Position numbers and translations under genes: made by a program. A stretch of 35,672 nucleotides of DNA, taken from Candidatus Berkelbacteria bacterium (GTDB taxonomy: Bacteria > Patescibacteriota > UBA1384 > XYA2-FULL-43-10 > CAINNR01). Below the pieces are notes generated by a model. It searched no databases and was not told the origin of the DNA. It saw only the letters and a program-made list of their open reading frames with translations. Position 1 is the stretch's first letter. Each line of letters starts with the position of its first letter. The DNA lies in assembly GCA_037128645.1 (NCBI GenBank), contig JBAXWD010000001.1, positions 1 to 35,672 of the forward strand, in the 5' to 3' direction. Of the stretch, positions 3,336-28,864 are shown piece by piece.

Positions 3336-3369
3336 GACTATCTATGATTTTTCTAAGTTAATTCTTTCG

Positions 3370-4131: not shown

Positions 4132-4405
4132 TTCGCTGATCCCTCGTTGATTTTTATTCCGTAAACAAGTTTCTTATCGCCAATTCCACCTCACTTGGGA
4201 AGCGTCCCCGAAATTTACTTCCAGGTCAAATAACTATTCATTATTACGGATAGTGTTTTTAAATCGTCTTCTAAAATTAAAATACGGGCGGTATTCATAT
4301 TAGTTAATCCTCTATGATTTTTATTGAGTTATACCTTATTGTCTAACAGCTACGAATAGTGAAGTGTCCCCAAAAAGTTTAGAAATGGTTTTTGAGTTTA
4401 CTTTT

Positions 4406-5047: not shown

Positions 5048-5091
5048 AATGTTCCCTTTCAGGTTATAAATCTATGCTCTAAGTTTAAGAT

Positions 5092-5634
5092 CTAAGTAAC
5101 CGATACTCTCTTGTTTCGGTTACAAGCGCCACAAAGTATTTGAAGATTTTCTGGTGCACTTGATCCCCCAACAGAAAAAGGAATAATATGGTCAAATTGT
5201 AATTCGGATTGTGATCCGCATTTTACACAGCGACCTTTATCTCTTTGCCAAACAAGTTGCTTTATATCGTCAGGTATCGCACCACGTTGTAATTTAGCCT
5301 GAATTTTCGGAGCAGCGGTTATGGTTTTGGCTCGATTAATTCGATCTTGTTGCAAGCGCTTTCGCGATAATATCAGAGCCTTAACAGATTCATGATCAAG
5401 ATCATCTGTATCTTTATAAAACTTGTTTTCAAACAGCCAATAGTTTTTATTGCCTATACAAAACTGGAAAGGTGTTTCATGTCTTTCTGCCAAAAATGAT
5501 GAATATTCTTCACGGGTTAGCCGGAAACTTCTAAAATCATGAATGGATTTTCCAACCACAAGACCAATATGCCCCTTCCTTGATAGAAAGTGCGGTGAAA
5601 AATAAATTGAAATGTTCTCGATTTGCTTGAGCAT
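5092..5634 (-). CDS. HNH endonuclease-domain protein (180 aa) with an uncharacterised N-terminal domain
   Basis: C-terminal HNH motif CVKCGSQSELQFDHIIPFSVGGSSAPENLQILCGACNRNK. Confidence 0.75.
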   Translation of the reverse strand: MLKQIENISIYFSPHFLSRKGHIGLVVGKSIHDFRSFRLTREEYSSFLAERHETPFQFCIGNKNYWLFENKFYKDTDDLDHESVKALILSRKRLQQDRINRAKTITAAPKIQAKLQRGAIPDDIKQLVWQRDKGRCVKCGSQSELQFDHIIPFSVGGSSAPENLQILCGACNRNKRVSVT

Positions 5635-5648
5635 ATTTTTTGAACTAT

Positions 5649-8600
5649 TTAATCGGCCTTAACAACTTCCTCTAGCCCCCAGAAAATACTGCCACCTTCA
5701 CGGATCAAATCGTTAATAAGGTCATAAACCTCAGATTTTATTTTTTGGTCGTTGGTATTATAGATGATCTGAAATGCCTCCAGCCATTCCTTATCAATAT
5801 GAAAAAACATACTACCGCGATCCGTACTCATTAAGCCATCGTACAGGTATAGTCGGGCAATTTTCAAGGTTTCAAGAGGGTCCGTTTCCGCAAATTCAAC
5901 GATCGAATTTGCAAGACCGAGTTCCCAGTGTATGACACCCTTTGTTTTTTCAAGTGTTCTCCTGACTCGCTCGGCAAGCCAAATTGGTTCAAACAATTTC
6001 TTTTCTAAATTTACCCATGTTCCAAACTCATCAAATATTTCCCTTTCGTCTTTATTTTTAAGTGTCCAATCCCAAAACTCGAGCAATTTGTCTTTTGTTT
6101 GAGGATTTTTTGCGATAAACTCATTTGCTTCTTTATTGTCCCCACTAATAAGAGACCTGCCTATAAAGCTAACAAACTTTGAAAGTTGCTTGGTATTACT
6201 TTTCGTTAAAAAATACTGGAATAATGGATGCTTAAAATTAAAATCATTATAATAAATGAAGGCGAGAGCGAGGTGCGTTGCGAGGCCTTCGTCGAGACTG
6301 ACGAAAGAATCTTGTTTCGAAGGAATACCCACCTGTTGGTCGATGGCACGATAATACAATTTTTGAAAATCTGGATCGAAAAATATTTTCTCATATAGAT
6401 TATTGGAAAGATACCCTTCCCATGCTGCTGTATAAAATTTATTTTTATCTTTATCGGTTGGAAAGATAATCGGGAGCAAACTATTAATCCACAGCTCATC
6501 TCTATAATGAAAAGTTGGAACATGGCGCCCAAACATGAACATTATTGCACGAGTATTCTCTTTACGTAAGATTTCTTCATATAGTATTTTACAATCGGGA
6601 GAAATCTTAATTTTGTCATTTTTATCAAACTTCTTCCCGTCCTGATAAACAAATAGTACAAAAACCTCGTAAGCTCTGCCCCTAACCGAGTTAATTGCAA
6701 TTTGAAAAGGATCGCTTATTCTAGCTTCAGAGGCCCCTGGCGATTGTATCGTCATTTTTGCCGTTTTGGGTTCCTCGTCTTCTGGAATTGGATCGGGGTA
6801 TTCTAAAAGGTACCTTAGAATTAGCAGAATAGAATCGCGATATTTTGATAAGTCGAGAGTAGGATCGCCGCCTGTGTTGTCAAGTAACAATTCCTTAACA
6901 ACATCGGACATGGCGGAATTGACAGCATTCCAGCTCGCAAGCCAAGTGTTATGAGGATCAAATTTACCTTTATTGCGACTGGCTTCTTCGGTCTGATGCA
7001 ATTCAATGATATTATCGAAAAGCTTAATCAACCCGTCCCATTTAACCTTGGGATCAGTCGAGCGGTTATTTTTTATAGCCTCTTGAATACCCTGTAAAAA
7101 CGAGTAGGTATAATGTGAATTTAATTTAGCCTGGTCAAAAAATAGATTGGCATGATCTACATAATCCTGCAAACGATTAGCTATATCCATTTTTATTTGA
7201 TTGCCAAGACCCTCAGCATTTCGCCTACTTAAGAAATCGTCATTTTTGTATTTTTCACTCAGAGATTCTGGAGACCATTCATTTTGTAATTTTCCAGCGA
7301 TCTCTTCAATTGGTAGAGTATTTAATTCTTTTTGGTCAACTGGGGATTGGTCTTTAACAAATCCGCCCACAATCGAGCTTATCCTCGGTCTGGGGTCAAA
7401 TTTTACGTCTAACTTAAAACCAGCGTCTAACACAGACTTTTTAGTGTCTTCGCCTAAATGGCTTACGATAATCGACATAATTTCCGAGCCACGTACTCGC
7501 CACCACTTATTATTTTTATCGTCTTTTTCAACTGGATGGTTAAAGTACTCTATAGCTTTTTCTGCATAATCCCTTCTATCTGCTTCAGAGAGTGATCCAA
7601 AGCACTTATCCAATAGTTTTTCATATTCAGTCCCAGCAATAATATCGCTATAGTGTTCTGCATCGAACAGTCGAAACAGCGCGTCTTTTATAATCTCCTT
7701 ATAAACGTTAGAAGCTAAGCTCAGGATAAATAAACGCATTCGCCATATTAGCTGACTATCAGGTAGAGGATGAATATAGTTTTCGTAAATCTTCAATATT
7801 TTTTTAGGATTGTTTTTGTTGTTCACAATAAGCCTACTAGCTAAAGCTTTTATTACAGCGGCTAGTTCGTACACACTTTCGCGAGAAGATGAGTGTTTCC
7901 TGCCCGGTGTGGCTGCGAAAAAATCTAAGTCAAATAAGTAGAAAGAATCTTCTCTTTTGAATGTTGAGTCTTTGGGTGCTTCACTTCCCAAATAAACAAT
8001 TTGTTCCAAGGTTTTGATTGTCAGTATAAACGCTTTCTCTACCATCTCATTACTAATAGATAATAGAGATTCGAATATATCTGTGTAAGCCAGGTCATTA
8101 AAATAGAAGGGACTTTCAAAGCCAGCTTGCTTTCCGAGTTGCTGGATTTCTTCTTTTGTTTTCACTGACAGTATTGTTTCAGCAAGAGTTAAAATACTTT
8201 TTTCGTTTTTTGCTTCAGCAAGTATTCTTAATATTTTTTGGTATTCAAATTCTTGGTTATTAAATAATTTCATAAGTAAGACCCAGTTTTCTCTTCGGAT
8301 TTTTTGAACTACTTTGCCTAACTCACTTGCCGGCAAAGAACCACAAATATGTAAAAATTGGTCTATTACTTCAGGATTAAAGGTCCCCATAGAAATCGGA
8401 ACAGCTAGGATTATCACAGCAACCTTTTCTGGGACTTTTATAACCATCCTAACCAGATAATTTAATTCTGGCATCCGATAGTTATATTGTGTAGGATCTC
8501 CAGCTTTCTTTTTAATATCATCCAGAAAATCGTTTTTCCAGAGCCAATCTAGCCAGAGTTCATTTGCATTGGAAAAGAAGTAATTCTTCGCATCAGCATT

Positions 8601-8696
8601 TGACTTAAGGAGAAATTTTAATTCAGCCAGCTTCCCATCCGAGGGCCTGCTGGCTAACAATAAGTCGATAGAATTGTGTAGTTTGATTTGGTTCAT
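5649..8696 (-). CDS. large hypothetical protein (1015 aa); no P-loop or nuclease motif recognised
   Basis: Uninterrupted 3 kb ORF, 14 bp upstream of the HNH gene and 6 bp downstream of the TM-protein gene. Rich in W/F/Y/L. I found no GxxxxGK[ST], HKD, HNH or PD-ExK pattern. Confidence 0.75.
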   Translation of the reverse strand: MNQIKLHNSIDLLLASRPSDGKLAELKFLLKSNADAKNYFFSNANELWLDWLWKNDFLDDIKKKAGDPTQYNYRMPELNYLVRMVIKVPEKVAVIILAVPISMGTFNPEVIDQFLHICGSLPASELGKVVQKIRRENWVLLMKLFNNQEFEYQKILRILAEAKNEKSILTLAETILSVKTKEEIQQLGKQAGFESPFYFNDLAYTDIFESLLSISNEMVEKAFILTIKTLEQIVYLGSEAPKDSTFKREDSFYLFDLDFFAATPGRKHSSSRESVYELAAVIKALASRLIVNNKNNPKKILKIYENYIHPLPDSQLIWRMRLFILSLASNVYKEIIKDALFRLFDAEHYSDIIAGTEYEKLLDKCFGSLSEADRRDYAEKAIEYFNHPVEKDDKNNKWWRVRGSEIMSIIVSHLGEDTKKSVLDAGFKLDVKFDPRPRISSIVGGFVKDQSPVDQKELNTLPIEEIAGKLQNEWSPESLSEKYKNDDFLSRRNAEGLGNQIKMDIANRLQDYVDHANLFFDQAKLNSHYTYSFLQGIQEAIKNNRSTDPKVKWDGLIKLFDNIIELHQTEEASRNKGKFDPHNTWLASWNAVNSAMSDVVKELLLDNTGGDPTLDLSKYRDSILLILRYLLEYPDPIPEDEEPKTAKMTIQSPGASEARISDPFQIAINSVRGRAYEVFVLFVYQDGKKFDKNDKIKISPDCKILYEEILRKENTRAIMFMFGRHVPTFHYRDELWINSLLPIIFPTDKDKNKFYTAAWEGYLSNNLYEKIFFDPDFQKLYYRAIDQQVGIPSKQDSFVSLDEGLATHLALAFIYYNDFNFKHPLFQYFLTKSNTKQLSKFVSFIGRSLISGDNKEANEFIAKNPQTKDKLLEFWDWTLKNKDEREIFDEFGTWVNLEKKLFEPIWLAERVRRTLEKTKGVIHWELGLANSIVEFAETDPLETLKIARLYLYDGLMSTDRGSMFFHIDKEWLEAFQIIYNTNDQKIKSEVYDLINDLIREGGSIFWGLEEVVKAD

Positions 8697-8702
8697 TATT
8701 CC

Positions 8703-9374
8703 CTATTTTGCATAAAAACTATACATCTGCCTCTGAATTTTTTTGATTGACTCGTCAAAATCATCAGATCCATATGCGTCTAGATTCCATGATGTTAATT
8801 TGGTAATCTCTTGCTTTATCCCGTCAGCTGTTTCATCCTCACTAATTTCGGACATCAGGTCAGCTATTTGGCTGTAGATTCTTATATATAGTGTCGCTGA
8901 ATTCTGATGTTGACCCTTGACTCTATAGTCTTCCGCTCTAGCATAATCATCAATATAGTTAAATGATCTACCATTTTTTTCAAAAAGTTTTTTGGTCTCT
9001 GCACAGATGAATTCTACATCTTGAGAAATTGTAAATGCGTCTGGATTGCTCCCGGTTTGGGTTAGAGCATCTTTTTCATCTGCAGTCCGGGGTGATATAT
9101 TGAATGTTGTGTTTTGACTATCAGTTATCACTGCCTGGATTCCGGCACCTTGCTGAGTGTTTTCGCCAGTATTAACAGCATGAACAGCTGAGCCACCATT
9201 TGCTGAGTTAGCTTGGTTGGCAGAGCCCTTTTGGCTGACCCTCTGTTTGAACTTCTTGACAACGCTCAGTTTATTTTCAATAAAAATACCAGCTCCACCT
9301 CCAATCAATAGGCCCAGCAAACCTATTGCAGCATCTAGTATTAATTTGTTGAGATTGTAATCTTCGGTTGTCAT
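8703..9374 (-). CDS. hypothetical membrane-anchored protein (223 aa): N-terminal TM helix, low-complexity linker, C-terminal domain of unknown function
   Basis: TM segment LILDAAIGLLGLLIGGGAGIFI, Q/N/S/G-rich linker, GGAG about 12 nt upstream of the ATG. Confidence 0.65.
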   Translation of the reverse strand: MTTEDYNLNKLILDAAIGLLGLLIGGGAGIFIENKLSVVKKFKQRVSQKGSANQANSANGGSAVHAVNTGENTQQGAGIQAVITDSQNTTFNISPRTADEKDALTQTGSNPDAFTISQDVEFICAETKKLFEKNGRSFNYIDDYARAEDYRVKGQHQNSATLYIRIYSQIADLMSEISEDETADGIKQEITKLTSWNLDAYGSDDFDESIKKIQRQMYSFYAK

Positions 9375-9470
9375 TTTATGTTTTTTCTCCAGACAAGAAT
9401 ACTATATACAGTTTAAAACCTAGAGGGCACTGATCATTTTCCTGGATTGTTTTCTCTATTTAATATTGTT

Positions 9471-12400
9471 TCAGGCGCTGCTTGCCTTGCTTACCCTATT
9501 CCAAACTAAACGGCAAACAGCTCTGTAAACATCCTTCCGTTCTTCTGAAGTTAGCTCCAGGGCGTCGAAGACTACTTTATCTAGTTTGGCTCGATCTGGG
9601 AGCGGACATGGTTCCTGTTCCTCGATTGGGATCTTCAGTTGGGGGTCAATTCCACACTCCAAAAATATTGATTCTTTATCCTTTTTCAGCAATTCCAGAC
9701 CAACAATATTTAATTCCATGACTTGCAAACGCTTAACCTCGTATGTCTGAATCTTTAATAATCCACCACCAAATCCAACTCGACCGGTATTAAGTTGAAG
9801 CAAGTATGATACAGATGAATTAAGGAATAATTCAATATGTTTTTCTGTATGGATTTCTTGAAAATTATCACTTACGAAACATTCACCTACATATGAAGTT
9901 CCTACTTCGCTTATCAAGTAGTTAAAATTAATTTTTGCGGGTACCCGGTCACCCAAACTATACCAGTCTCTTCTTCCTGAAACACTCGGGACATCTTTCC
10001 AAAAAACCCCGTCTTTTGTTTTCTGTCGCTCGCCCCACTCAATATATTCTAAAGCCTTTGTACCAGCCAGGGCTTCTTTGCGTTTATTACAAATAAAGAG
10101 CTTGAAGCTGAGTTTTTTAGCATCGATCACAATACTTTTGCATTCACGAGGACTCTTGATTACTGGCTTCAAAAATTCATTTTCGATACCCCAACGACGA
10201 CTTTGTTCCTCATTAATATAAAAGAACTCATTCACACCTGTAGTAAAGCCTCGCCTTACAACAGCAACATCAGACAATTTGACAAGTTTATCTTTCCCTT
10301 TATTTAAGATGGTGAATAGAATATCGGGAGCGCGCAAGAATTTACTTCCCCATTTTTCTCCAATATATTTCCCGACTTTTAGTTTTTCCTGGGTTTCATC
10401 TTCAAATTCAATACCAGATTCTTCTAATTTGTCATTTGTAATCGGATATACCCTAAACATTTCATTGGAAGTTATTTCTTGAGCCTTTTCAATGGCAAGT
10501 AAATTTTCAGTATATATTACTTCCTCGAATGGTTTTTTAAATGCTATAAATTTTACGACATGGTCATCGCTAACACTTCTTTTTCTGTCAGCCAAAGGGG
10601 CGTGTATCACTGAGATAATTGTATTAACATCAGCAGCTTCGAAGCTTCTCTTTGCATGGTTATCTATTATAAGCTCGACTGGGGCACGTTCCAGTAAAAA
10701 CTTCTGAAGCCAAACTCCGTAGCCAACATCAAGCCAAGAGTTAGAGCAAATGAAAGTGTGTATTCCTTGAGGGTTGAGCAGACGCAGTCCACGAATATAA
10801 AAATAAGTATAGAGATCTGATTGGCCATTAATTTTAGTCTTTTGGGAAAAATCGTTTGGGAAATCTAGCTTAACCATTTCGGCAAGCAATCCCTTGTATT
10901 CTTTTTTATCCTTTATTCTACCCGTAGGGTCAGCAATATCTTCTTGTCTAACGTATGGAGGATTTCCGATAATGATGTCAAAGCCTCCTTTTTCAGTGAA
11001 GACCTCAGCGAATTCTATACACCAGACCAAAGGTTTATCTTTCCGCAAAACACTCTTCTGCTCCGAGAGTTCCAATATCTCGTTTTCCAATTGATCGATT
11101 TTTTCTTTGTTTAATTCGAGTGAAGTTTGTTGAGGAACTTCATCACCACCAAATAACGATGTTACTCGGAGAGTTTTCTGGCCCTTGAGACTCTTTAATT
11201 CATTTTGTTTTTCTTGTATCTCATTAGATAGAATTTCCTCATAAATCCTAAGCTCCTTTTGTCTAGGAACATCATAGTTTGCAAAAATAGTTTTATTATT
11301 AAAAAAATCAATTTTAAATGTTTTCAACTCAGTTATCTTCTTTTTTAATGAGCTCGTAAGTGCCTGGTTATAGCCAATAACTGGGAATAGCTTTGACCCA
11401 ACACGTTGAACTAAAGAATCGCCTTGCCGAACCTTAAAGTCAAGACTGGGGAGAATAGGTTTTTGTGACATTCTTAATTCTTCGGGTGCTTCAATAAACA
11501 AAGAGAGCCAAAGCCTTAACTGACAGATCCAAACTGCCCATTCCTTAACTTCAACACCATAAAGAGAGTTGCCAATAATTTGCTTTTTTCGGTCAAACGA
11601 ATCGCGACGGACAAGATCGAAACGTTCCCTTAAATTGTTTTCAACTTCATCTAGAACTTGCATCATTCCAACCAAGAAAGCACCTGAGCCAACTGCGGGG
11701 TCGCAAATAGCTAGGTTCTCGAGTAAATCCAAAGTTTCTATAGCTTCAACCTTAGAAAAGCTACCTACTTTTTGCTCATTATCCTTCTCACTTTCACGGA
11801 AGAATAGTTCGTAGAGGTTCTCTGATCTGATGTTGGAAGTTTGGTTCTTTTGCAACCATTTAACGAGACTTAACCTACACATATAGTCAACTTCGGTACG
11901 GGGTGTGTAAACGGCACCATCAGCCTTATTTACGATACGTTCAAAGATTATCCCCAAGAATTCCGGATTGAGCTGGAGATCTGAATCATCTATTGAGCTT
12001 TCCTCAATCGTGAAACTATGCGAAAACAGAAAATCAAAAAATTCGCCGATTTCCTGGTCTGGAATATACCAGCCATTTCCGTCATAGCCATCCTTCTCTC
12101 TAAAAAGGCCACCGTTTAGATATGGGGCAAGCTGTAGCGCTGAATTAATTTCTGCTGGTAAGTGTTGCCGAGGAAAGAACTTATTGTTCAGTGCTTCAAA
12201 GAAAAGGAGAGAGAGCCAATCTTCGTAAAATCTATTTTCAACTTTAGATTTTAGATAGCTGCTAAATAATTTTTGAATGAAATTCTGGTCGTCACCGAGC
12301 CAATTCCTTTTTTGAATGAATCCGAGAAAGATTGTTCGGATTGAGAATAAGAGAACGAAATCTCTTGCTTTTTCTTCGGTTATGCTATTCTTGACCGCCG

Positions 12401-12953
12401 CAACTTTAACAAGCTTGTTATATATATTAAAAAAATCTTTGTAGAATATCTCTGTAACTGGACCGACAGCAAATGCATCTTTGACCGAGGAGAATGAGGA
12501 AAAATTAGAACTACTCATCCTCTCTAAAAAGGTTTTATTAGTAAACTGTCTACTTACGAAATATGTAAATCGACGAAAATTAGACCATTGCCGACGCGTC
12601 CCGACCGCCTCAGGATAAATTAGTGAAAAACGAAAATTTCCAGATGAATCGAAAAACACGAATATGCCAGCTCCGAAATCATACTTTTTCAACAATGTCT
12701 TTGCGAACTCGTACTGGATTCTCTTTGAGCTTCTTTCGTCAAGTTCTCGTCCTACAAATGATTCTATAATTACGAGTTTTTCCCATGCTTTGAAATTAAT
12801 CTCTCCAATTTTTCTGGTTTGGGTTATTAATTGGCCATGGATGTCAGGTAAGGTTGCCATAGATCTTGTAAAGAGCGAAGATTTAGCTTCAAAAAAACTA
12901 GCTAATTTATCTGCATCATATTGAGCAATTAGTTGATCAAGAAATTCTTTCAT
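9471..12953 (-). CDS. N6-adenine DNA methyltransferase, large MmeI/PglX/YeeA-like (Eco57I-family) architecture, 1160 aa
   Basis: AdoMet motif I DPAVGSGAFLVGM lies upstream of catalytic motif IV IIIGNPPYV (gamma-class order). Long N-terminal region with no obvious PD-ExK triad. Large C-terminal specificity-like region. The start codon overlaps the helicase stop (ATGA at 12950-12953). Confidence 0.9.
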   Translation of the reverse strand: MKEFLDQLIAQYDADKLASFFEAKSSLFTRSMATLPDIHGQLITQTRKIGEINFKAWEKLVIIESFVGRELDERSSKRIQYEFAKTLLKKYDFGAGIFVFFDSSGNFRFSLIYPEAVGTRRQWSNFRRFTYFVSRQFTNKTFLERMSSSNFSSFSSVKDAFAVGPVTEIFYKDFFNIYNKLVKVAAVKNSITEEKARDFVLLFSIRTIFLGFIQKRNWLGDDQNFIQKLFSSYLKSKVENRFYEDWLSLLFFEALNNKFFPRQHLPAEINSALQLAPYLNGGLFREKDGYDGNGWYIPDQEIGEFFDFLFSHSFTIEESSIDDSDLQLNPEFLGIIFERIVNKADGAVYTPRTEVDYMCRLSLVKWLQKNQTSNIRSENLYELFFRESEKDNEQKVGSFSKVEAIETLDLLENLAICDPAVGSGAFLVGMMQVLDEVENNLRERFDLVRRDSFDRKKQIIGNSLYGVEVKEWAVWICQLRLWLSLFIEAPEELRMSQKPILPSLDFKVRQGDSLVQRVGSKLFPVIGYNQALTSSLKKKITELKTFKIDFFNNKTIFANYDVPRQKELRIYEEILSNEIQEKQNELKSLKGQKTLRVTSLFGGDEVPQQTSLELNKEKIDQLENEILELSEQKSVLRKDKPLVWCIEFAEVFTEKGGFDIIIGNPPYVRQEDIADPTGRIKDKKEYKGLLAEMVKLDFPNDFSQKTKINGQSDLYTYFYIRGLRLLNPQGIHTFICSNSWLDVGYGVWLQKFLLERAPVELIIDNHAKRSFEAADVNTIISVIHAPLADRKRSVSDDHVVKFIAFKKPFEEVIYTENLLAIEKAQEITSNEMFRVYPITNDKLEESGIEFEDETQEKLKVGKYIGEKWGSKFLRAPDILFTILNKGKDKLVKLSDVAVVRRGFTTGVNEFFYINEEQSRRWGIENEFLKPVIKSPRECKSIVIDAKKLSFKLFICNKRKEALAGTKALEYIEWGERQKTKDGVFWKDVPSVSGRRDWYSLGDRVPAKINFNYLISEVGTSYVGECFVSDNFQEIHTEKHIELFLNSSVSYLLQLNTGRVGFGGGLLKIQTYEVKRLQVMELNIVGLELLKKDKESIFLECGIDPQLKIPIEEQEPCPLPDRAKLDKVVFDALELTSEERKDVYRAVCRLVWNRVSKASSA

Positions 12954-15900
12954 TCTGAACCCTTTTGATTCTCAATTGAAATGATTACATCTTGAGTTAG
13001 CTTATTTGCTCGCTCTTTAATAGAATCGAGATAGTTGTCACCGCCAAGAAGTTTTTTTAAGTCCTTGATATCTTTAATTGACTCTTCAGATTTTGCATCA
13101 GAGCTAAAATTAAGTTTTTTAATTGTTCTTTGAGTATATTCTGATAAAGTTTTGTATTCGTACATGTCTTCAAGAAGGCTTTCAATGAATTTTTTATAAG
13201 GGTTGAGCTGATCGTCTTGAAGCTCTAGTAAATATTTGAGATTGTTTTTCGCCTGAACTTCAACACTTTGTTCGCTAGTTGCTCTTCTCAAATTCTCTTT
13301 GTAGTCGCTGATTTTCGTGTACGATTTCCAAAAATCAACACTAAGATCCAACCCGGTTGTTTCTGGTTCACATTTGATCAATTCATAACATTGGTCAACC
13401 CCACATTCATTAACAGGAGAGGTGAGATCTGATTGGTCTGTTGTACGGATGAAAAATCCCAAGCCTTTTCTTATAACCGTAACAAGAATATTTTTCTCAT
13501 ACTCTTTTGCAACTTTTACTCTATTTGGAAGCTTGGCTATTTTTTCTACTATATTTGGATTCTGTTTGCATAGTTCCATATACTCACGTCTGATTTTTGT
13601 TTGAAAACTTTCTTGTTCCAAGTTTTCTGGATTCTCATTGACTCGGTCATATAGACTAGCAGCGTGTGGGGTCTCGTCCGCATCGAATATTTTAGCATCT
13701 TCGCCCAAAACATTGTGAATCATAAACATTTTCTCTGCAGCTATTTGGCGGCTTTTAATGATATCCGCACCTTTCAAAGTCGGGAAGAAGTTGTGAATAT
13801 ATAAATATTCAAATACTTTTTTGCCTATTCTGTTTATTCTACCCACCCTCTGAATCACTCTGGTCGGATTCCAAGGTATATCATAATTGATGACAGATCC
13901 AGCCCTGTTTAGATTAAAACCTTCAGACATTTTGTCTGTTCCTAGTAGAATCTGATAGGTGTCTTCCTGCTCTTTGTAGTCTGCATCAAAGTTTTTTAAG
14001 ACATCATCAATCTTTGAATTCAGGTCATTTGTTACAGAAAGTACTTTCCCAGGAAATAAATTTTCAAGGATTGGTTTTAAGTAGTTTGCAGTATCAAGAT
14101 ACTCGGTGAAAATTATAACTTTTCTGTTCTTAACGTTATCAATACCGCCAGATATAATTTTGTTTATAGATTCTTCTAACTTTTCAATTTTCGGATCGTT
14201 TGCGACAAGATCTAGATCTTGTATCTTTTGCTTAAGTTCTGCAAATATATTGAGATCGGACTGCATGTCTTCTAAAAATTTATCTTTTTGCTTGAATTCG
14301 TCGATTTTATATCTCTGATATGATTTGGGATAATTTCCTTTTTCTAAGACTTCGGTATATTCGTCAAGTTTTTTCTGAACCTCTTCAATATCATCCTGCG
14401 ATATTTTTTCAATAAGTTTTCTGTCGAGAATAAACTCGCCAGTTTTATTGACGAAGTCAATGCAAAGTTTGGTTACCCTTTCAAAATTATTTATACTCTT
14501 TTCGAACGCGCCAAAAGAGCTCTCAAAACGTTTTACAAGAAGCCTTTTCATAAAATCATACAAGTTTTTCTGAATCAAAGACTGTCTATTACCTTCCTGG
14601 CCCAAAGCTTCAACGTCATCGGTATCAATCCCTTCTTGATAACGAAATGGCTGATAAATAGCACCTTTGAATTTACCGTTTTCACTAAAATAATCTTCAA
14701 TAACTTCATCATAGAATTTAGATTGTGCTTCGGTAAGCTCATAAAATTCTTCAACTGGAGGATCAGCTATCTCCGACAATTCTGTTACTTCTTTAGAGTA
14801 AACCGGGTCATTTTTTAGATCAAGCCTATTTCTTCGTATAGTAACTGGCTCAATCACAGATCGGATTCTTTCGGCTAAACTCTTTGCCCTCCCAAGAACA
14901 TCTTTGTCAACTTTCTCAAAAGAAATTTCTCTTTCGCCGAAAAGCGAACGATACTTTGCTTCCGCCTGTTTTCTTTTGTTTTCATCTGAAGACCGGATAT
15001 TTTTTTTAATATATGACAAGTCTTTGAATACTTTATTGTAATGAGAAAATTCAACGTCAAGATCATCGTTTAAAGTAAGCTCCGATTTACCAGAAATAAT
15101 AAATAGCTTAAGCAGTGAATATATATCAGCCGGAGAGTTATTAAATGGCGTAGCTGTCATTAAAATGACCACTTTATCTTTGCATATACCTCTTAATAAT
15201 TCATGATCTCTAGTATCTTGATTCCTAAATCTATGGGCTTCATCAATAATTATTACATCAACATCATTGTTTTGGACGTAATCAAATGCGTCTTCCAAAT
15301 TCCCTGATGACTTTATCTCCCAAGAATACAGTCCAAAATCTTTGCGATACTTTTTCCAACCAGACTTGTTGTTTGTGTCTCCTATTAGACCAGGAGGGCA
15401 AAGAATTAGGCCTTTTTTGTTTATCATTCTGCCAACCAAAGAACCAACTACACTTTTGCCAAGACCAACAACATCACAGATAATAGCACCGTTATATCGT
15501 TCAATCATGGCAAGAGCCTGAGTAACAGCGTCAACCTGATATTGGTAAGGTTTGTAACCAGCATCTTCTAAAATCAATTTTAGACTTTGCTCGGCTTTTT
15601 GTTGCTTGGTATATTCAACATAATTTCTTAACACTAAAGCAAATGCTTCGAACGGAGTAATTTTTGCTACAATGCTTTCCTGCTCTAGTGTTTTGATAAG
15701 TCTTTCTTTTATAACATCATTTTCTGTAATCTTCACCGAGCTTTCCCACAGTTCATCAAAAAAATCTTCAGCTTCTTTCGAATTGCTATCACTAACCTCT
15801 AAATTAAATTCTCCTTGAGAGACAAGACCAGCCCTGGTTAGGTTACTACTTCCGGTAATAAAAATAGATTCTCGGATTATTTTTGAGTCTTCATTCATTT

Positions 15901-16312
15901 TGAATATATACAACTTTGAATGATTTGGCTCTTTTGTTTTTCTAATTATTAAGCGGCCTTCTTTTATTGAATCTATGAAATATCTAATTTGTTCATAGTA
16001 CGCTTCTGAATCTAGTTCTTTGTGAGAAGTGGCTGTTTTTACAGAACCAATGTAGTTATTGGCTCTTTCGGAATCGTTTTTGGCTTGTAATCCAAGTTCT
16101 ACCAGTTGATCTGTTAACTGATCAACATTAAGGCCAACGAGTACATTCAACTTTATACTAGGGTTAAGTTTGAGGCATTCAAAAAGTTCAGCAATGCCAG
16201 AAAAGTAAAAAAAACCAACTAGAAATTTAAGCTCCTGGCTCTTAGAAGTAAGTTCGGAAATTCTATCGCGTAGCTTTCTTTCCTTGTTGTTGATGATATT
16301 TGCATTTGCCAT
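12950..16312 (-). CDS. fusion of an N-terminal PLD (HKD) nuclease domain and an SNF2-family helicase, 1120 aa
   Basis: HKD motif NHSKLYIF...ITGSSNLTRAGL. SNF2 motifs DVVGLGKS (I), IIIDEAHRFRN (II), LMTATPFNNSPADIYSLLKLF (III) and LLGTDKMSEGFNLNRAGSVINYDIPWNPTRVIQRVGRINRIG (V-VI). AAGGAA SD. Confidence 0.9.
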   Translation of the reverse strand: MANANIINNKERKLRDRISELTSKSQELKFLVGFFYFSGIAELFECLKLNPSIKLNVLVGLNVDQLTDQLVELGLQAKNDSERANNYIGSVKTATSHKELDSEAYYEQIRYFIDSIKEGRLIIRKTKEPNHSKLYIFKMNEDSKIIRESIFITGSSNLTRAGLVSQGEFNLEVSDSNSKEAEDFFDELWESSVKITENDVIKERLIKTLEQESIVAKITPFEAFALVLRNYVEYTKQQKAEQSLKLILEDAGYKPYQYQVDAVTQALAMIERYNGAIICDVVGLGKSVVGSLVGRMINKKGLILCPPGLIGDTNNKSGWKKYRKDFGLYSWEIKSSGNLEDAFDYVQNNDVDVIIIDEAHRFRNQDTRDHELLRGICKDKVVILMTATPFNNSPADIYSLLKLFIISGKSELTLNDDLDVEFSHYNKVFKDLSYIKKNIRSSDENKRKQAEAKYRSLFGEREISFEKVDKDVLGRAKSLAERIRSVIEPVTIRRNRLDLKNDPVYSKEVTELSEIADPPVEEFYELTEAQSKFYDEVIEDYFSENGKFKGAIYQPFRYQEGIDTDDVEALGQEGNRQSLIQKNLYDFMKRLLVKRFESSFGAFEKSINNFERVTKLCIDFVNKTGEFILDRKLIEKISQDDIEEVQKKLDEYTEVLEKGNYPKSYQRYKIDEFKQKDKFLEDMQSDLNIFAELKQKIQDLDLVANDPKIEKLEESINKIISGGIDNVKNRKVIIFTEYLDTANYLKPILENLFPGKVLSVTNDLNSKIDDVLKNFDADYKEQEDTYQILLGTDKMSEGFNLNRAGSVINYDIPWNPTRVIQRVGRINRIGKKVFEYLYIHNFFPTLKGADIIKSRQIAAEKMFMIHNVLGEDAKIFDADETPHAASLYDRVNENPENLEQESFQTKIRREYMELCKQNPNIVEKIAKLPNRVKVAKEYEKNILVTVIRKGLGFFIRTTDQSDLTSPVNECGVDQCYELIKCEPETTGLDLSVDFWKSYTKISDYKENLRRATSEQSVEVQAKNNLKYLLELQDDQLNPYKKFIESLLEDMYEYKTLSEYTQRTIKKLNFSSDAKSEESIKDIKDLKKLLGGDNYLDSIKERANKLTQDVIISIENQKGSE

Positions 16313-23253: not shown

Positions 23254-23282
23254 TTGACTTTTTCTCTCTGATATGGTATGAT
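23254..23282 (+). promoter_or_regulatory. sigma70-like promoter (TTGACT, 17 nt spacer, TATGAT with TGn extension) upstream of the DGR target gene
   Basis: -35 at 23254-23259, -10 at 23277-23282. Confidence 0.5.
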
Positions 23283-23313
23283 TCAAAGTTAATTTATGTA
23301 CCTTTACAAGATT

Positions 23314-23362
23314 GGAACAAGCATTTTGCTAATAATCACTTTGTTATCAAAATGCTTGTTCC
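23314..23362 (+). promoter_or_regulatory. 14-bp perfect stem-loop in the target-gene leader; the right arm contains the ATG at 23352
   Basis: ggaacaagcatttt (23314-23327) pairs with aaaatgcttgttcc (23349-23362). 21-nt loop. Confidence 0.5.
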
Positions 23363-24317
23363 AGACAAGGGACACAGCCTGCCTTCAGGCAGATCACATA
23401 GTGGAAGGATGATGACGATGTCCAATGAGGCATTGATCCCGTCCGTGACGCACCCAAAACGTCGTGAAGTGCTGCGCAACTGCGCAGTCGGTCTGGATAG
23501 GGCCGGACTGGACGAGGATGGACTCCAGCAGATCGTGCACCGCGCTGGCGAATTGCAGCAGGGCATGATCGAGTTGGTCAAGCGCCTGTCGCTTTCCAAC
23601 CAGTTCGCGAGCGAAGAGACGGCGTCCAACTACACCTACCCACCTGAGTACAAGGGCCCGAAGCCGATCGAGGAACAGATCACGGCACTCGCCAAGATGC
23701 TCGACCTCGACCCGGCCTCCGCCCTCGCGTTCGCAATGAACCTACCAGCTCTTCCCGAAGGTGCCGAAGGATGGTTTGCCATCCCGTCGCCCGTCGCACT
23801 GGCTGCCAAGCACTTTGCCAATCTGGCAGACCCCGCCGAGCAGAACTGCGCCGGAATCAGCCTGATCCACGCCAAGATCGCGGCATCGCGGAAGTTCTAC
23901 AACTACCGCGAAGGCCAGATCACGACGACACAGTTGCGGGTTGCAATCCGCACAGCCGAGGCGCTGGCCCAGATCACCGAGACCCAGAAGGGCGACATCC
24001 TGATCATCGCTGCCCAGCTCGGGCTTCGCCACCGCGGCAAGTCCGTTCGTCGGGCACGTGAAGTGATGAGCGCCAATGAGTTCGGTCTCGGCTCACTGAT
24101 GATCGGCTCCATTGTACTGACTCACCCCGAGCGGTTTGTCCGCTGGGAGCAGTTGCACATGGATTGCGCCGGCGATGAGTTCAGTCCGGGGGCCGGAGGC
24201 GACTTCGTCAACGCGCCGTACTTACGCTTCGGCGACGGCGAGGTCCGGTTCAGCACCTACTGGGTCAGCAGTGCCCACGCCCACTATGGCTCGGCCTCGG
24301 CTTTCCTCCCGCAGTAG
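23352..24317 (+). CDS. DGR target (variable) protein, G+C-rich, no signal peptide seen; the C-terminal ~43 aa are encoded by the VR
   Basis: Long ORF whose last 130 nt form the VR. The start is uncertain: ATG 23352 has no SD and lies inside the hairpin. The ATGs at 23409, 23412 and 23418 follow GGAAGG (23403-23408), and 23418 has the best spacing. Confidence 0.8.
   Translation: MLVPDKGHSLPSGRSHSGRMMTMSNEALIPSVTHPKRREVLRNCAVGLDRAGLDEDGLQQIVHRAGELQQGMIELVKRLSLSNQFASEETASNYTYPPEYKGPKPIEEQITALAKMLDLDPASALAFAMNLPALPEGAEGWFAIPSPVALAAKHFANLADPAEQNCAGISLIHAKIAASRKFYNYREGQITTTQLRVAIRTAEALAQITETQKGDILIIAAQLGLRHRGKSVRRAREVMSANEFGLGSLMIGSIVLTHPERFVRWEQLHMDCAGDEFSPGAGGDFVNAPYLRFGDGEVRFSTYWVSSAHAHYGSASAFLPQ
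24186..24315 (+). repeat. DGR variable region (VR)
   Basis: 130-nt gap-free alignment to 24746-24875. Of the 21 mismatches, 19 lie where the TR has A. Confidence 0.88.
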
Positions 24318-24381
24318 AAGTTTGTACCTTGTTTCTTAAATCCCTTGAGACTTTTGGCATCTTGATACTTGTCTCTCGGGT

Positions 24382-24397
24382 ACCGCCGATAGGCGGT
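24382..24397 (+). promoter_or_regulatory. GC-rich 6-bp hairpin with a 4-nt loop (accgcc-gata-ggcggt) downstream of the VR
   Basis: Seen directly, 67 nt after the VR end. In the BPP-1 DGR paradigm a GC-rich hairpin with a 4-nt loop lies downstream of the VR. Confidence 0.35.
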
Positions 24398-24408
24398 TCG
24401 ACACATCC

Positions 24409-24446
24409 GGGCTACCAGTCACCATACTGGTAGCCCGTTTTCTTTT
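24409..24446 (+). terminator. Rho-independent terminator of the target gene
   Basis: An 11-bp perfect stem gggctaccagt/actggtagccc, loop caccat, then gttttctttt. Confidence 0.6.
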
Positions 24447-24745
24447 GCAAAATTAAGTAAATATGGTATATACTCTAAACGAAAGTAGGCTAATGCACAG
24501 TCGTCTAAGGATTGCTGTCGCCGAAATTTCAAGTCAACAAAACAGATCGGAATTTTAGTGTTTACGGATACTAAAAGTGCATCTGTGTTGAGGAGATACT
24601 GCTTGCCCTTGCCTGGTGCAGGTGTCGCTTCGGCGACTGCTGCCAAATAAAATACAGAAAAGAGAATATATAGTTTGGTTCTCCCGAGGAGAGCTAAAGG
24701 CAAAATTCAATTTTCAGTGCACATAGATGGGCAGAGGGCAATTTA

Positions 24746-24875
24746 CCGGAAGCCGATGGCGACTTCGACAACGCGCCGTACTTCAACTTCAACGACGGCA
24801 AGGTCAAGTTCAACACCAACTGGGTCAGCAATACCAACGCCAACTATGGCTCAGCCTCGGCTTTCCTCCCGAAGT
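24746..24875 (+). repeat. DGR template region (TR)
   Basis: Invariant, A-rich copy of the VR. In the VR reading frame it is rich in AAC/AAT/AAG codons (...FNFNDGKVKFNTNWVSNTNANYGSASAFLPK). Confidence 0.88.
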
Positions 24876-24949
24876 CTCTCCTTAATTAAAGAAAATACGC
24901 CCAGTCCGCCAAACAGCGGATCAAGCGTATTTTCTTGTTCTTTTTGTGG

Positions 24950-25297
24950 CTATTCTTTGGTTGATTTAATCCAGCCACCGAGCATACGACCGATTTCGTC
25001 GAGATCCATTTCAATCGATGTATAAGTTTTAAGCTCTATTGTTTTAACATCTTTCATCAAACGGACAAAAACCTTTAACAAGCTGAGGTTGGAACTGGCA
25101 TCTATCAGAGATGGAAGTTTCTCGTCCTTACCAAGTTGGCTGGCCTTGAGAATGCCCTCAATAACTTTCAAAAGATAATTTTCTGATTTGAGAAATATTG
25201 AGTAGCGATCCTGTTTTGGCACTTTGGTGCCGAGAGTGTGGAATTGTTTATATAATTCATAAGCCTTTTTAAAAATCGGGATGTCAAATTCCTGCAT
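24950..25297 (-). CDS. avd: DGR accessory variability determinant (Avd-like four-helix-bundle protein), 115 aa
   Basis: Size, composition and the FKKAYELYKQFHTLGTKVPKQDRYSIFLKSENYLLKVIEGILKA pattern fit the Avd-like four-helix-bundle family. It lies next to the TR and RT. GAAAGGAAC SD. Confidence 0.75.
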   Translation of the reverse strand: MQEFDIPIFKKAYELYKQFHTLGTKVPKQDRYSIFLKSENYLLKVIEGILKASQLGKDEKLPSLIDASSNLSLLKVFVRLMKDVKTIELKTYTSIEMDLDEIGRMLGGWIKSTKE

Positions 25298-25310
25298 AGG
25301 TTCCTTTCAT

Positions 25311-25952
25311 ATGAAATATTACAAAAATATATTTGAAAAAATTATCAACCCGAACAATTTGTTCACCGCTTGGGATGAGTTTAAAATAGGCAAACTCCGC
25401 AAGACCGATGTTTTAGAATTCGTAGCTGGGCTGGAAGAAAATATCTTTAAACTCTACCGTGATCTAAAATACCACAGTTACAAACACGGTGTCTATCGGT
25501 CATTCTATATTACCGACCCGAAATTAAGAGAAATTAACAAGGCAATGGTCAGAGATAGAGTTTTACATCATGCCGTTTTTCAGATTCTATACCCGATGTT
25601 TGAGCCGACATTCATTTCAAATTCTTTTTCTTGCCGTGACGAAAAGGGAAATCACAAGGGCGTTGATTATCTAGAAAAAATAATCCGGGAGGTTAGCAGA
25701 AACTATACCCGAGATTGCTTTGTTATGAAATGCGATATACGAAAATTCTTTGGTTCGGTCGATCATCGGATTTTATTGGAAATTATTCAGCGAAAAGTTA
25801 AAGATGAAGATTTTAATTGGCTGATTAAGGAAATCATTGGCAGTTTTGGTTCAAAAACCGACTATCAACCACAATTACAACTGTTCGATTTTCGAGTCGA
25901 AAATCCAGAGAGAGAGAGAAAGAAAGAGCAGCCTTCGGCTGCTTGGGGGTAG
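25311..25952 (+). CDS. DGR reverse transcriptase, N-terminal fragment (motifs 1-3), ending at an in-frame TAG after a G5 run
   Basis: FYITDPKLREI, DRVLHHAVFQILYPMFEPTFISNSFSCRDEKGNHKG, VMKCDIRKFFGSVDHRILL. ATG 25311 is preferred over the track start at 25281, which would overlap the avd start. Confidence 0.85.
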   Translation: MKYYKNIFEKIINPNNLFTAWDEFKIGKLRKTDVLEFVAGLEENIFKLYRDLKYHSYKHGVYRSFYITDPKLREINKAMVRDRVLHHAVFQILYPMFEPTFISNSFSCRDEKGNHKGVDYLEKIIREVSRNYTRDCFVMKCDIRKFFGSVDHRILLEIIQRKVKDEDFNWLIKEIIGSFGSKTDYQPQLQLFDFRVENPERERKKEQPSAAWG

Positions 25953-26431
25953 GTATTCCCATTGGCAATTTAACCAGTCAACTCTTCGCTAATGTATATA
26001 TGAATGAGTTTGACCAGTTTGTAAAACATAAATTAAAAGTCAAGCATTATTGCCGGTATACTGATGATTTTGTTGTCGTATCTGATAATCGTGAATATCT
26101 CCAGGACTTATTGCCGAAAATTGAATCGTTTATTAATGAAAATCTGAAACTCAAGTTACATCCGGAAAAAGTTTCAATCCGTAAATATCAGCAAGGTGCT
26201 GACTTTCTCGGCTATGTGATTTTGCCTCATCATCGCTTAGTCAGAACAAAAACCAGGAAAAGGATATTTGAAAAGCTCAAAAACAGGGTTAAGGAATTCA
26301 AAAATGGGCAAATTAGCGAAGAAAAACTTAAACAATCACTGAATTCGTTTCTGGGTGTTTTTTCACATGCCGACTGTCATGATTTAGAGCAGGAGCTGAT
26401 AAACAAATTTTGGTTTTGGCTTTCAGAATAA
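25943..26431 (+). CDS. DGR reverse transcriptase, C-terminal fragment (motifs 4-7) in the -1 frame
   Basis: DGR-diagnostic IGNLTSQ (25961-25981), catalytic YTDD (26057-26068), ADFLGY. This frame is open from 25829, so it overlaps the end of the N-terminal fragment. Confidence 0.85.
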   Translation: MGVGIPIGNLTSQLFANVYMNEFDQFVKHKLKVKHYCRYTDDFVVVSDNREYLQDLLPKIESFINENLKLKLHPEKVSIRKYQQGADFLGYVILPHHRLVRTKTRKRIFEKLKNRVKEFKNGQISEEKLKQSLNSFLGVFSHADCHDLEQELINKFWFWLSE

Positions 26432-27261: not shown

Positions 27262-28845
27262 ATGGACAATTCGTTATCGAAAAAAAGTTTGGCTGATTTA
27301 GGTAAAGCAGTTATCTATTTGCGAGTTTCAACCGAAGAGCAGGTTGATAATTATTCACTAGAAACGCAAGAGAACATTTGCAAAAAAGAAGCTGAGCGAA
27401 TGAAAATTGAAGTTGATCGAGTCTTTCGAGAAGAAGGTCGATCAGCCAAAACAATTACCGGTCGACCGGCATTGGTTGAGTTACTGGAATACTGCAGAAA
27501 AAACAAGCGGGAGATCGGAGTTGTTATCGTCTATCGCTTGGATAGAATCTCAAGACAAACGGCTGATTATCTGGCAATTAGAAAAAAGCTTGCCGAGTGC
27601 GAGATCGCACTCATATCAGCCACGGAGCCAACAGGTAACTCGCCTACAGAAAAGTTTGTAGAGACCATGCTGGCAGGTTTCGCACAGATGGACAATGATG
27701 TACGTTCTGAGCGGTCTAAGAACGGCATGAGAGCCAGATTCTTGGCTGGCCTAAGCAATGGCTATGTCCCGATGGGATATCTTAACCGAAACGGCTATGC
27801 GATCAAAGATCCGGAAACATTCGATCAAATGAAAAAAGCTTGGGATTTAATGGCAACCGGCACAAAATCTCTTCGAGGGATAACTGACCTTCTTATTAAG
27901 CAAGGAATGAAAGGAGGTCGTAGAAACAACAAGAAAGATCACATTCTACGTCCACAAACGATGAATGCCATCTTTCGCAATAAATTCTACACCGGCAAAA
28001 TCATTTCGAAGAAATACGAGCTCGAAGTTCAAGGGCAGCATCCTGCCATGGTCACCGAAGAACAGTTTTATAAGGTGCAATCAATCCTTGACGGTCGAAA
28101 TACTCAGATTGCTTCACCATTGACCAGAAGAAATGTCGATAACCCTGATTTTCCACTCAGGCGTATTGTAAAATGCACAAAATGCGGCGCTTCGATGACT
28201 GGTGGTTGGTGCAAAGGAAAACGAAAACACTATGCTTTCTATTTCTGTCTTAACAAGTGTAAGGGTTTAAATACTTCTAAGGCAAAAATCGACGAAGAAA
28301 CAACAAAGACACTTGATGGGATTAAACTTCATGACAAATCTGTTGATCTGTTCAACGCCTGGCTGCGCAGAAAATACTACGAACGACTTTCTTCATTACA
28401 GAAAAGACGGGATGTCGCTGATATCGAGTTAAAAAAGCTTTACGAGTTCCGACAGTCGCTAATAGAAAAGAATATCTCCGGAGTTTATTCGGACGATATA
28501 TTCAAAGAGCAGAACCAGATTGTCCAAGATAAGATAAAAATCCTTCAGATAACAAAAAATGATGACATGATCCAAAAGTATAATTTGGAAGCCATCACTT
28601 TATTTGTGAAATCAAAGCTGGACAATGTTACACGAACCTTCGAAAAATCCAATCTGCAACAGAAGAGAATGCTCTTGTGTTCAATATTCCCCTCTGGACT
28701 GCACTGGAACGGAAGTACCTACTTGAACACCCAGATTAGTGTGTTCTACACCGAGTTATTACGTTTAAATAAGGGGGGTGTCGTGTTTGGTGGACCCAAG
28801 CGGATTCGAACCGCTGACCTCTTCGCTGCCAGCGAAGCGTTCTAG
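27262..28845 (+). CDS. large serine recombinase (integrase-type), 527 aa
   Basis: Resolvase catalytic domain AVIYLRVSTEEQ...YRLDRISRQ, recombinase domain, Cys cluster CTKCGASMTGGWC...FCLNKC, and a C-terminal region compatible with a coiled coil. AGGAGGGA SD. The last 58 nt are antisense to tRNA-Ala. Confidence 0.88.
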   Translation: MDNSLSKKSLADLGKAVIYLRVSTEEQVDNYSLETQENICKKEAERMKIEVDRVFREEGRSAKTITGRPALVELLEYCRKNKREIGVVIVYRLDRISRQTADYLAIRKKLAECEIALISATEPTGNSPTEKFVETMLAGFAQMDNDVRSERSKNGMRARFLAGLSNGYVPMGYLNRNGYAIKDPETFDQMKKAWDLMATGTKSLRGITDLLIKQGMKGGRRNNKKDHILRPQTMNAIFRNKFYTGKIISKKYELEVQGQHPAMVTEEQFYKVQSILDGRNTQIASPLTRRNVDNPDFPLRRIVKCTKCGASMTGGWCKGKRKHYAFYFCLNKCKGLNTSKAKIDEETTKTLDGIKLHDKSVDLFNAWLRRKYYERLSSLQKRRDVADIELKKLYEFRQSLIEKNISGVYSDDIFKEQNQIVQDKIKILQITKNDDMIQKYNLEAITLFVKSKLDNVTRTFEKSNLQQKRMLLCSIFPSGLHWNGSTYLNTQISVFYTELLRLNKGGVVFGGPKRIRTADLFAASEAF

Positions 28846-28864
28846 CCAACTAAACTATGGGCCC
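28788..28864 (-). tRNA. tRNA-Ala (anticodon GGC), CCA encoded
   Basis: The reverse complement is GGGCCCATAGTTTAGTTGGCTAGAACGCTTCGCTGGCAGCGAAGAGGTCAGCGGTTCGAATCCGCTTGGGTCCACCA. It folds by hand into a 7/4/5/5 cloverleaf with anticodon loop CT-GGC-AG, T-loop TTCGAAT and the G3:U70 alanine identity pair. Confidence 0.9.

Follow-up and report, generated by a model that had tools for sequence, protein, structure and literature searches.

What kind of protein does a diversity-generating retroelement (DGR) rewrite when the target shows neither an export signal nor the signatures of familiar DGR targets? The question is raised by a 35,672-nt stretch of the Candidatus Berkelbacteria contig JBAXWD010000001.1 (the window, by which we mean the whole stretch that was analysed), in which an open reading frame (ORF) of 321 aa at 23352-24317 on the forward strand was confirmed. 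The initial annotation had described its product as an apparently cytoplasmic DGR target with an unfamiliar variable region. DGRs are unusually common in bacteria that belong to the radiation of candidate phyla (CPR), while the role of their targets is an acknowledged open question. We consider, with a probability of about 0.6, that the ORF encodes a variable protein of a CPR family in which a C-type lectin (CLec)-like domain free of inserts is carried on a family-specific N-terminal module, the protein being cytoplasmic by default.

The last 43 codons of the ORF form a variable region (VR; 24186..24315, +), which is repeated directly over 130 nt, 560 nt further downstream, in an intergenic template region (TR; 24746..24875, +) encoding the peptide PEADGDFDNAPYFNFNDGKVKFNTNWVSNTNANYGSASAFLPK. 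Within the ORF the two copies differ at 21 positions, 19 of which are adenines in the TR (binomial P ~8e-10, given 34 A in 132 nt), and the consensus of the protein family has an undefined residue at exactly the variable positions. The C-terminal peptide quoted in the initial annotation was correct. Downstream lie genes for an Avd accessory protein (24950..25297, -; Pfam bAvd PF22296, E=2.4e-17) and for a DGR reverse transcriptase (RT; 25281..26431, +), the latter in two reading frames with RVT_1 matches on both halves (25281-25952 and 25943-26431). Because the mismatches between VR and TR are biased to adenines and Avd and RT are adjacent, the locus is a DGR and the ORF at 23352/23418-24317 is its genuine target. 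The TR holds 21 adenine-bearing codons, eight of them AAY, giving a theoretical repertoire of ~7e18 proteins.

The start of the gene is best placed at 23412 or 23418 (MTMSNE.../MSNE..., 299-301 aa), as favoured by the deposited annotation and by the family alignment, in which homologues start with M(T)MS.... The deposited hypothetical protein WCP91_00085 of Ca. Berkelbacteria is 100% identical to the target, starts at 23418 and is 299 aa long; we use this version of the gene (23418..24317, +), with 23412, 23409 and 23352 as alternative starts.

The G+C-rich 3′-end of the VR (24285..24311, +) encodes YGSASAFLP on the last strands of the protein, and is a candidate for the site at which mutagenic homing is initiated (IMH). 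It equals TR positions 24845-24871 in 26 of 27 bases, the lone exception (24293) being silent and written as N in the search pattern. This pattern has two matches only in the whole window, namely the VR and TR copies, where none is expected by chance. By analogy with the variable proteins Mtd, TvpA and TaqVP (PMC6328139), we infer that 24285-24311 is the IMH.

The cassette in the window runs in the order target, TR, avd on the opposite strand, and RT. The avd and RT genes are divergent and overlap by 17 nt at their 5′-ends, an arrangement also found in related loci. With the TR placed between the target gene and the 3′-end of avd, TR RNA and avd mRNA converge on a hairpin with 21-nt arms (24889..24936) located directly 3′ of the TR and before the end of avd; this hairpin may be a structural element of the TR RNA, or may terminate transcription in both directions. 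A promoter-like site is found upstream of the TR (24445-24474).

The target protein had no matches in Pfam, NCBIfam, PADLOC, PHROGs or the PDB sequences, which bears out the earlier statement that the ~250 aa upstream of the variable end match nothing described. Nor did the profile searches link its C-terminus to a known class of target: among 150 diverse members of the family none had a Pfam match, with FGE-sulfatase (PF03781) and DUF1566 (PF07603) absent at E<=0.1, and the isolated C-terminal domain, whether with the VR or with the TR-encoded “germline” peptide, had no Pfam match either, and none to these two models at E<=10.

A first AlphaFold2 run, with 120 close homologues (55-82% identity), gave a predicted local distance difference test score (pLDDT) of 61, with values below 50 at the C-terminus; a second run drew on 150 representatives of 50%-identity clusters, which are 36-58% identical to the query, and gave a mean pLDDT of 96.1 and a predicted template modelling score (pTM) of 0.90. 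The latter model begins with three helices (13-58) and a conserved linker, continues with an alpha/beta part (84-189) and ends in a C-terminal part (194-299). The elements of the C-terminal part are, in order, strand 194-200, helix 210-216, strand 221-223, helix 226-235, and strands 247-249, 253-255, 265-272, 275-282, 290-292 and 294-296. In the hairpin formed by strands 265-272 and 275-282 the variable residues alternate with conserved Phe and Val (pattern x-F-x-F-x / x-V-x-F-x; in the TR-encoded form N-A-P-Y-F-N-F-N, then K-V-K-F-N-T-N-W), and they then fill the loop 284-290. The last nine residues of the target, YGSASAFLP, are invariant.

The CLec core of DGR variable proteins consists of the terminal strands beta1 and beta5, two helices, and a beta2-beta3-beta4 sheet; the ligand site and the variable residues lie between beta3 and beta5, and the invariant last residues are on beta5 (PMC6328139). 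Judged by their order, the elements of residues 194-299 agree with this account. Foldseek searches returned no match at E<=0.001 in the PDB (350,542 chains) or in BFVD. The top PDB match, not significant, was the DGR variable protein TvpA (2y3c; E=2.3, probability 0.08, 48 columns, TM-score 0.10), and the top BFVD matches, likewise non-significant, included a C-type lectin protein (E=2.7, 107 columns, root-mean-square deviation 4.2) and several phage tail-collar fibre proteins. Because the order of elements matches the CLec core and TvpA ranks first in the PDB, residues 194-299 may be read as a divergent, insert-free CLec-like variable domain of ~105 aa, in which the variable residues would form a one-sided ligand-binding patch on the face of the hairpin and on the loop that follows. 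The earlier claim that the VR lacks the signatures of known DGR targets thus holds in that neither the HMM searches, for FGE/CLec and for DUF1566, nor Foldseek place it squarely in any such family; on the model, however, the scaffold is probably not wholly unfamiliar.

The same results could be taken to mean that the VR sits on a scaffold that is neither CLec nor immunoglobulin (Ig)-like, and thus a third structural solution for DGR variation. A model as confident as this one (pLDDT 96) that finds no counterpart in the PDB or BFVD at E<=0.001, and no relation through hidden Markov models (HMMs) or PDB sequences, is what such a scaffold would give, and Wu et al. (2018) left the CPR variable regions UVR1-6 unassigned to CLec, Ig or any other fold for the same reason, with UVR2, 3, 5 and 6 devoid of a motif (PMC5758913). 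Given the order of the elements, we tend to doubt a new scaffold and prefer the CLec-like reading of the C-terminal domain.

For the middle of the protein, a barstar-like domain was considered and rejected. One weak PDB profile match (6pqk_B, E=0.049) covered residues 86-155, where the order of helices and strands is similar to that of barstar; the hhalign probability was 3%, no Pfam Barstar match was obtained in the 150 members, and no barstar occurred among the best 50 of the 54 Foldseek matches with E<=10.

The core of the protein carries the conserved polar motifs AQxGxRHRGxSVRRARE, NEFGLG, THPER and DCxGDE (family alignment), and at least 90% of the 150 representatives keep residues Q200, G202, G207, S209, E221, G223 and R239. 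The motifs point either to a functional site that stays fixed or to a brace that supports the VR structurally. As they adjoin the variable domain, and as Handa et al. consider that FGE-type CLec variable proteins could be catalytic (PMC6328139), the core might be an enzyme or a nucleic-acid- or nucleotide-binding module whose substrate or target specificity is tuned by the VR. No resemblance to an enzyme family was found in the sequence and fold searches, however, and the conserved residues could equally stabilise the fold, which makes this proposal improbable.

Under the CLec-like reading, the system would work as follows. As in the standard DGR model, the Avd-RT pair would copy the TR RNA (24746-24875) into cDNA, misincorporating at adenines, and this cDNA would replace the VR (24186-24315), the invariant G+C-rich 3′-end setting the direction of transfer. 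Up to 21 codons could be rewritten in this way, corresponding to the ~7e18 variants calculated above. The product would be a compact, soluble protein of ~300 aa that displays a diversified ligand-binding patch on a fixed scaffold, with its N-terminal ~190 residues making up the family-specific module (three helices, and the alpha/beta part with its conserved Arg/His/Glu/Cys/Asp motifs). A genome may hold several such paralogues, which would be diversified in trans by one TR.

Where such a protein would act depends on its location. Signal peptides and transmembrane segments were assessed by a Kyte-Doolittle hydropathy scan and by inspection of the N-termini. Both candidate N-termini of the target are hydrophilic, and the scan revealed no signal peptide, lipobox or transmembrane helix from either start. 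The highest 19-residue window (1.40) covers residues 216-234, an internal conserved segment that forms a buried strand and helix in the AlphaFold2 model. A known N-terminal domain was likewise not found in the HMM libraries. Since it has neither a Sec/Tat signal nor a transmembrane segment, the target is most likely cytoplasmic; the earlier description of it as a cytoplasmic protein stands as regards the missing signals, whereas the location itself is a default reading that we regard as probable rather than settled.

The family largely agrees: 147 of the 150 representatives have no signal peptide or transmembrane segment, the exceptions being P0251 and P0246, with a clear signal peptide, and P0225, with a possible one. 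About one quarter of the members have no N-terminal helices altogether, and no signal peptide either. In P0251 and P0246 a classical Sec signal peptide stands in place of the N-terminal helices, and these two represent a rare divergent offshoot; a search from P0251 recovered a tiny group to which the CPR family is closest. At one locus (L087), which has 31% G+C and no DGR, P0251 and a paralogue in tandem, both secreted, are encoded at 849-1619 and 1642-2580.

That a signal peptide occurs in these relatives exactly where the CPR proteins have their N-terminal helices is one reason to consider that the latter are exported by a Sec-independent route, the target then being a diversified adhesin or receptor-binding protein used by an episymbiont to attach to host cells. 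Most full-length members share an N-terminal motif, ..ITS.DPKG.., which could be a targeting signal, and attachment to the host is the role that reviews usually propose for CPR DGRs (PMC10221324). The census of representatives speaks against export, however, as do the members that have lost the N-terminal region without gaining a signal peptide, and no secretion or pilus genes recur beside the target in the 82 related loci that we compared (80 from species-representative genomes and 2 looked up by protein). Export is therefore possible, if doubtful, and we retain the cytoplasm as the default location of the target.

Several points weigh against our reading of the protein as a whole. The CLec assignment draws on topology and rank, with a best Foldseek match (E=2.3) that is not significant, and both the pairing of the strands and the surface position of the variable residues are presumed; no HMM ties the VR to FGE-sulfatase or DUF1566. 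The signal peptides of P0251, P0246 and the tandem paralogue of P0251 imply that the fold can work outside the cell, and a missing signal peptide is no proof of a cytoplasmic location.

How far the family extends was examined by sequence searches. In a collection clustered at 90% identity, 2406 homologues were found at E<=0.001, forming 1579 clusters at 50% identity. The source names are all those of CPR/Patescibacteria lineages, and among the matches listed none of the homologues has a Pfam domain. Collections of phages and of plasmids contained no relative, and 2.9 million viral contigs yielded four loci only. By these searches the target family is very large, unnamed and nearly confined to CPR/Patescibacteria.

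About 35-40 of the 82 loci share the cassette of target, TR (~400 nt past the target), inverted Avd and RT; the rest have no DGR within 10 kb. Two of the DGR-free loci were examined, and in both the target lies among housekeeping genes (UvrB, RNase HII, DnaE and ribosomal proteins). Three independent assemblies of the element (L090, L091 and L092) end 340-465 nt past the target, at the TR or a little short of it. Assemblies are probably broken up by the VR/TR repeat, and short contigs may hide DGRs in cis. In Ca. Spechtbacteria SB0662_bin_43 four paralogous targets lie on as many contigs (L052, L042, L060 and L069), and the VRs of all four are matched by a single TR (L052, ~5328-5456, minus strand). 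As judged by inspection of the alignments, these VRs differ from the TR nearly always at its adenines. Since one TR matches four VRs, copies that have no DGR of their own can still be targets, and in this one Spechtbacteria genome a single DGR, by the evidence of these alignments, diversifies several dispersed paralogues in trans. Tandem target paralogues are found in L003, L032, L038, L045, L050 and L062.

Are any other genes consistently associated with the target? All ORFs within 6 kb of the target in the 82 loci were clustered, and apart from Avd and RT no neighbour family occurred in more than seven loci; a recombinase was present in 7 of the 82. An apparent neighbour family on the opposite strand proved to be a shadow ORF inside the G+C-rich target gene. 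With no recurrent neighbour beyond Avd and RT, the defence genes near the target in the window are incidental. This bears on the idea in the initial annotation that the target is a variable recognition module for invading elements, that is, an intracellular diversified sensor functioning as part of a defence island. The lack of a signal peptide and the location in the window, on an integrative element near DISARM/type IIG-like genes, agree with this idea, and in cyanobacteria DGR targets joined to signalling domains are reported to work inside the cell (PMC7517822). A conserved defence or effector neighbour is missing from the 82 loci, however, with the recombinase limited to seven of them; the family is CPR-wide, with paralogues among housekeeping genes; and the target itself has no PADLOC match and no recognisable effector domain. 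We consider the sensor very unlikely. That the target lies on a mobile island next to defence genes is true for the window, while the target family is not tied to islands or to defence genes.

A further characteristic of the target, already pointed out in the initial annotation, is that it is the most G+C-rich gene of the window, where G+C peaks at 0.59 (23501-24500) compared to ~0.37 elsewhere. The target exceeds the rest in G+C in every one of the 77 loci that offer 3 kb or more of other sequence, by 16 points on average (from +4 to +27), and its G+C is 46-70% whatever the value of the host (29-56%). Without the VR, G+C at third codon positions (GC3) is 0.69 in the target vs 0.42 in flanking ORFs. 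The profile climbs at the start codon and falls back to background immediately past the stop; the neighbouring RT shows no enrichment, and the signal-peptide-bearing, non-DGR relative at L087 shows an excess of 4 points only. Recent horizontal transfer was rejected as a cause, given that the enrichment is present in 77/77 loci and stops at the ends of the gene; A-depletion by stray DGR mutagenesis was also rejected, as A and T of the coding strand drop by similar amounts. One idea is that biased gene conversion among dispersed paralogues is responsible. To judge from the loci compared, the high G+C is a family-wide and gene-bounded property and no mark of foreign origin for the copy in the window.

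The two reading frames of the RT gene raise the question of whether the element is active. An (AG)6 microsatellite lies inside the gene (25907..25918, +), and the frame break follows it; removal of one AG unit restores an uninterrupted RT ORF of 382 aa. The tract sits a short way upstream of the RT's G(I/L)PIGNLTSQLFAN motif, and is followed by the hairpin AGCAGCC-TTCG-GGCTGCT (25927-25943). Among the 31 loci with both halves of the RT, 11 carry (GA)n, with n=6-17, at this site (the window, L003, L016, L022, L032, L033, L049, L051, L057, L063 and L079). Of these 11, 10 have their RT out of frame (five at +1 and five at +2), vs an RT in frame in 19 of the 20 tract-free loci (Fisher P=2.6e-6). 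The tract resembles a switch that would turn the mutagenic RT on and off by strand slippage, and our literature search found no paper describing it. Programmed -1 frameshifting is unlikely as a general remedy for the split RT, since half of the broken loci need +1 and half -1; in the window the RT has A_AAG followed by the hairpin, and this copy might use -1 frameshifting.

Five other assemblies encode an identical target, and hence the same VR peptide, and are 99.98-100% identical to the window over the stretches covered. L093, the sole one of these whose RT was read through, shares the (AG)6 tract; with this and the near-identity of the assemblies, the RT break is unlikely to be an assembly error. 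No VR variants were found within the 90% cluster nor among the six assemblies, which are consensus assemblies in which minor variants below consensus are possible. At the consensus level the population looks static, and the element is probably switched off at present, its RT being out of frame at the (AG)6 tract.

Solved CLec variable proteins of DGRs are those of a Bordetella phage (Mtd), Treponema (TvpA), Thermus (TaqVP) and Nanoarchaeota (AvpA) (PMC6328139). Like these, the target carries its VR at the C-terminus (~43 aa, compared to 45, 45, 40 and 23 aa, respectively); the variation is adenine-specific, the variable residues fall, by the model's order of elements, between the equivalents of beta3 and beta5, the core elements come in the same order, and the invariant last residues coincide with IMH-like DNA. 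It differs in that its domain, at ~105 aa, would be unusually small and devoid of the inserts present in all four, in the lack of a significant structural or sequence score, and in an N-terminal module that has no counterpart among them. The confident model is that of a soluble protein of ~300 aa, which can be expressed, crystallised and compared with these four.

Wu et al. described 126 CPR DGRs, 90% of them with the B3 architecture, which is nearly absent elsewhere and differs from others in how avd and TR are ordered and oriented (PMC5758913); by analogy, the cassette of the window with its inverted avd would be B3. Roux et al. (2021) assigned the CPR DGRs to clade 2, with the uncharacterised target clusters PC_00019, 20, 24, 27, 29 and 40, predicted novel CLec variants in CPR, and stated that it “remains to be established” whether CPR targets are genuinely non-membrane-bound (PMC8144416). 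That CPR DGR targets are without transmembrane segments and known domains was already published in the two surveys (PMC8144416, PMC5758913). Our target resembles UVR1-6 and the clade-2 PC clusters, as compared by description, in its CPR host, inverted avd, lack of a transmembrane segment and lack of a recognisable domain, and one family member (P0013) stems from the groundwater genomes GW2011, that is, from data of the type that was surveyed. The surveys give no structure model, and the parts consulted mention neither the G+C anomaly nor the RT microsatellite (PMC5758913, PMC8144416).

The finding is real and was correctly described, and is not new: it is a further case of the published open question on CPR DGR targets. 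The follow-up adds a confident model, the tentative minimal-CLec reading and the signal-peptide census, and no new kind of system. What looks new is the family-wide, gene-bounded enrichment in GC3 and the (GA)n tract with the RT out of frame in 10/11 loci.

Cyanobacterial targets reportedly carry recognisable signalling domains upstream of a CLec VR, unlike the CPR target family, which has no recognisable partner domain. According to Vallota-Eastman et al. 2020, the cyanobacterial targets belong to regulatory pathways and not to the cell surface, and they set a precedent for intracellular diversification (PMC7517822). The signal-peptide census, in which nearly all members are without and rare relatives with a signal, frames a clean experiment on localisation. 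The (GA)n tract and the target-confined G+C may concern the control of diversification; if the tract were indeed a phase-variation switch, CPR bacteria would gate hypermutation stochastically, which would be of interest for DGR biology and for DGR-based directed evolution. A bolder reading would join all of these into a CPR-specific, truly cytoplasmic and self-contained recognition repertoire instead of a surface adhesin, built on a new fold or the most minimal CLec, and controlled at three levels: diversification of several paralogues in trans by one TR, a (GA)n on/off switch in the RT and a gene-bounded force that holds synonymous sites of the target genes rich in G+C; taken together, we think this unlikely.

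Ahead of the target gene, a consensus scan revealed a promoter-like site, TTGACT-17-TATGAT with an upstream TG (23254..23282, +; 10/12 matches), a candidate promoter. Between this site and the start codon is a palindrome with 23-nt arms, TGGAACAAGC...GCTTGTTCCA, that are 91% complementary (23313..23363). It covers the upstream ATG at 23352, which argues against a start there, and may be a 5′-untranslated hairpin or an operator controlling the target gene. A palindrome of ~50 nt (TGGAAYAARC...GYTYGTTCCA) is found 37-55 nt upstream of the inferred start of the target in the four closest relatives including the window; the copies at L003 1311-1360, L062 9890-9939 and L016 9836-9886 show changes in both arms, and further loci have palindromes of their own at this position. 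The target is followed by an intrinsic-terminator-like hairpin of 12 pairs and a T run (24408..24437, +).

The DGR of the window is situated on an apparent integrative element with T4CP-like, relaxase-like and DUF3768 genes and a large serine recombinase (27262..28845, +; Resolvase, Recombinase and Zn_ribbon_recom domains), the 3′-end of which overlaps a tRNA-Ala (28788-28864, -). The recombinase and tRNA-Ala are likely the right end of the element; a search for the left end, by way of an att repeat of the tRNA-Ala 3′-end, found none within the window. Upstream of the DGR is a defence-like block of DISARM/type IIG-like genes on the minus strand (2446-16312), in which the matches stayed short of every family cut-off for a complete DISARM or BREX system. 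It includes a DrmD-like protein with phospholipase D (PLD) and SNF2 helicase domains (12950-16312; full-length coverage of the PADLOC HKD+Snf2 model, E=3e-34), a type IIG/DrmMI/PglX-like methyltransferase (9471-12953), two large ORFs without matches (5649-8696 and 8703-9374), an HNH protein (5092-5634) and a small DrmC/Mko-like PLD protein (2446-3168), all on the minus strand.

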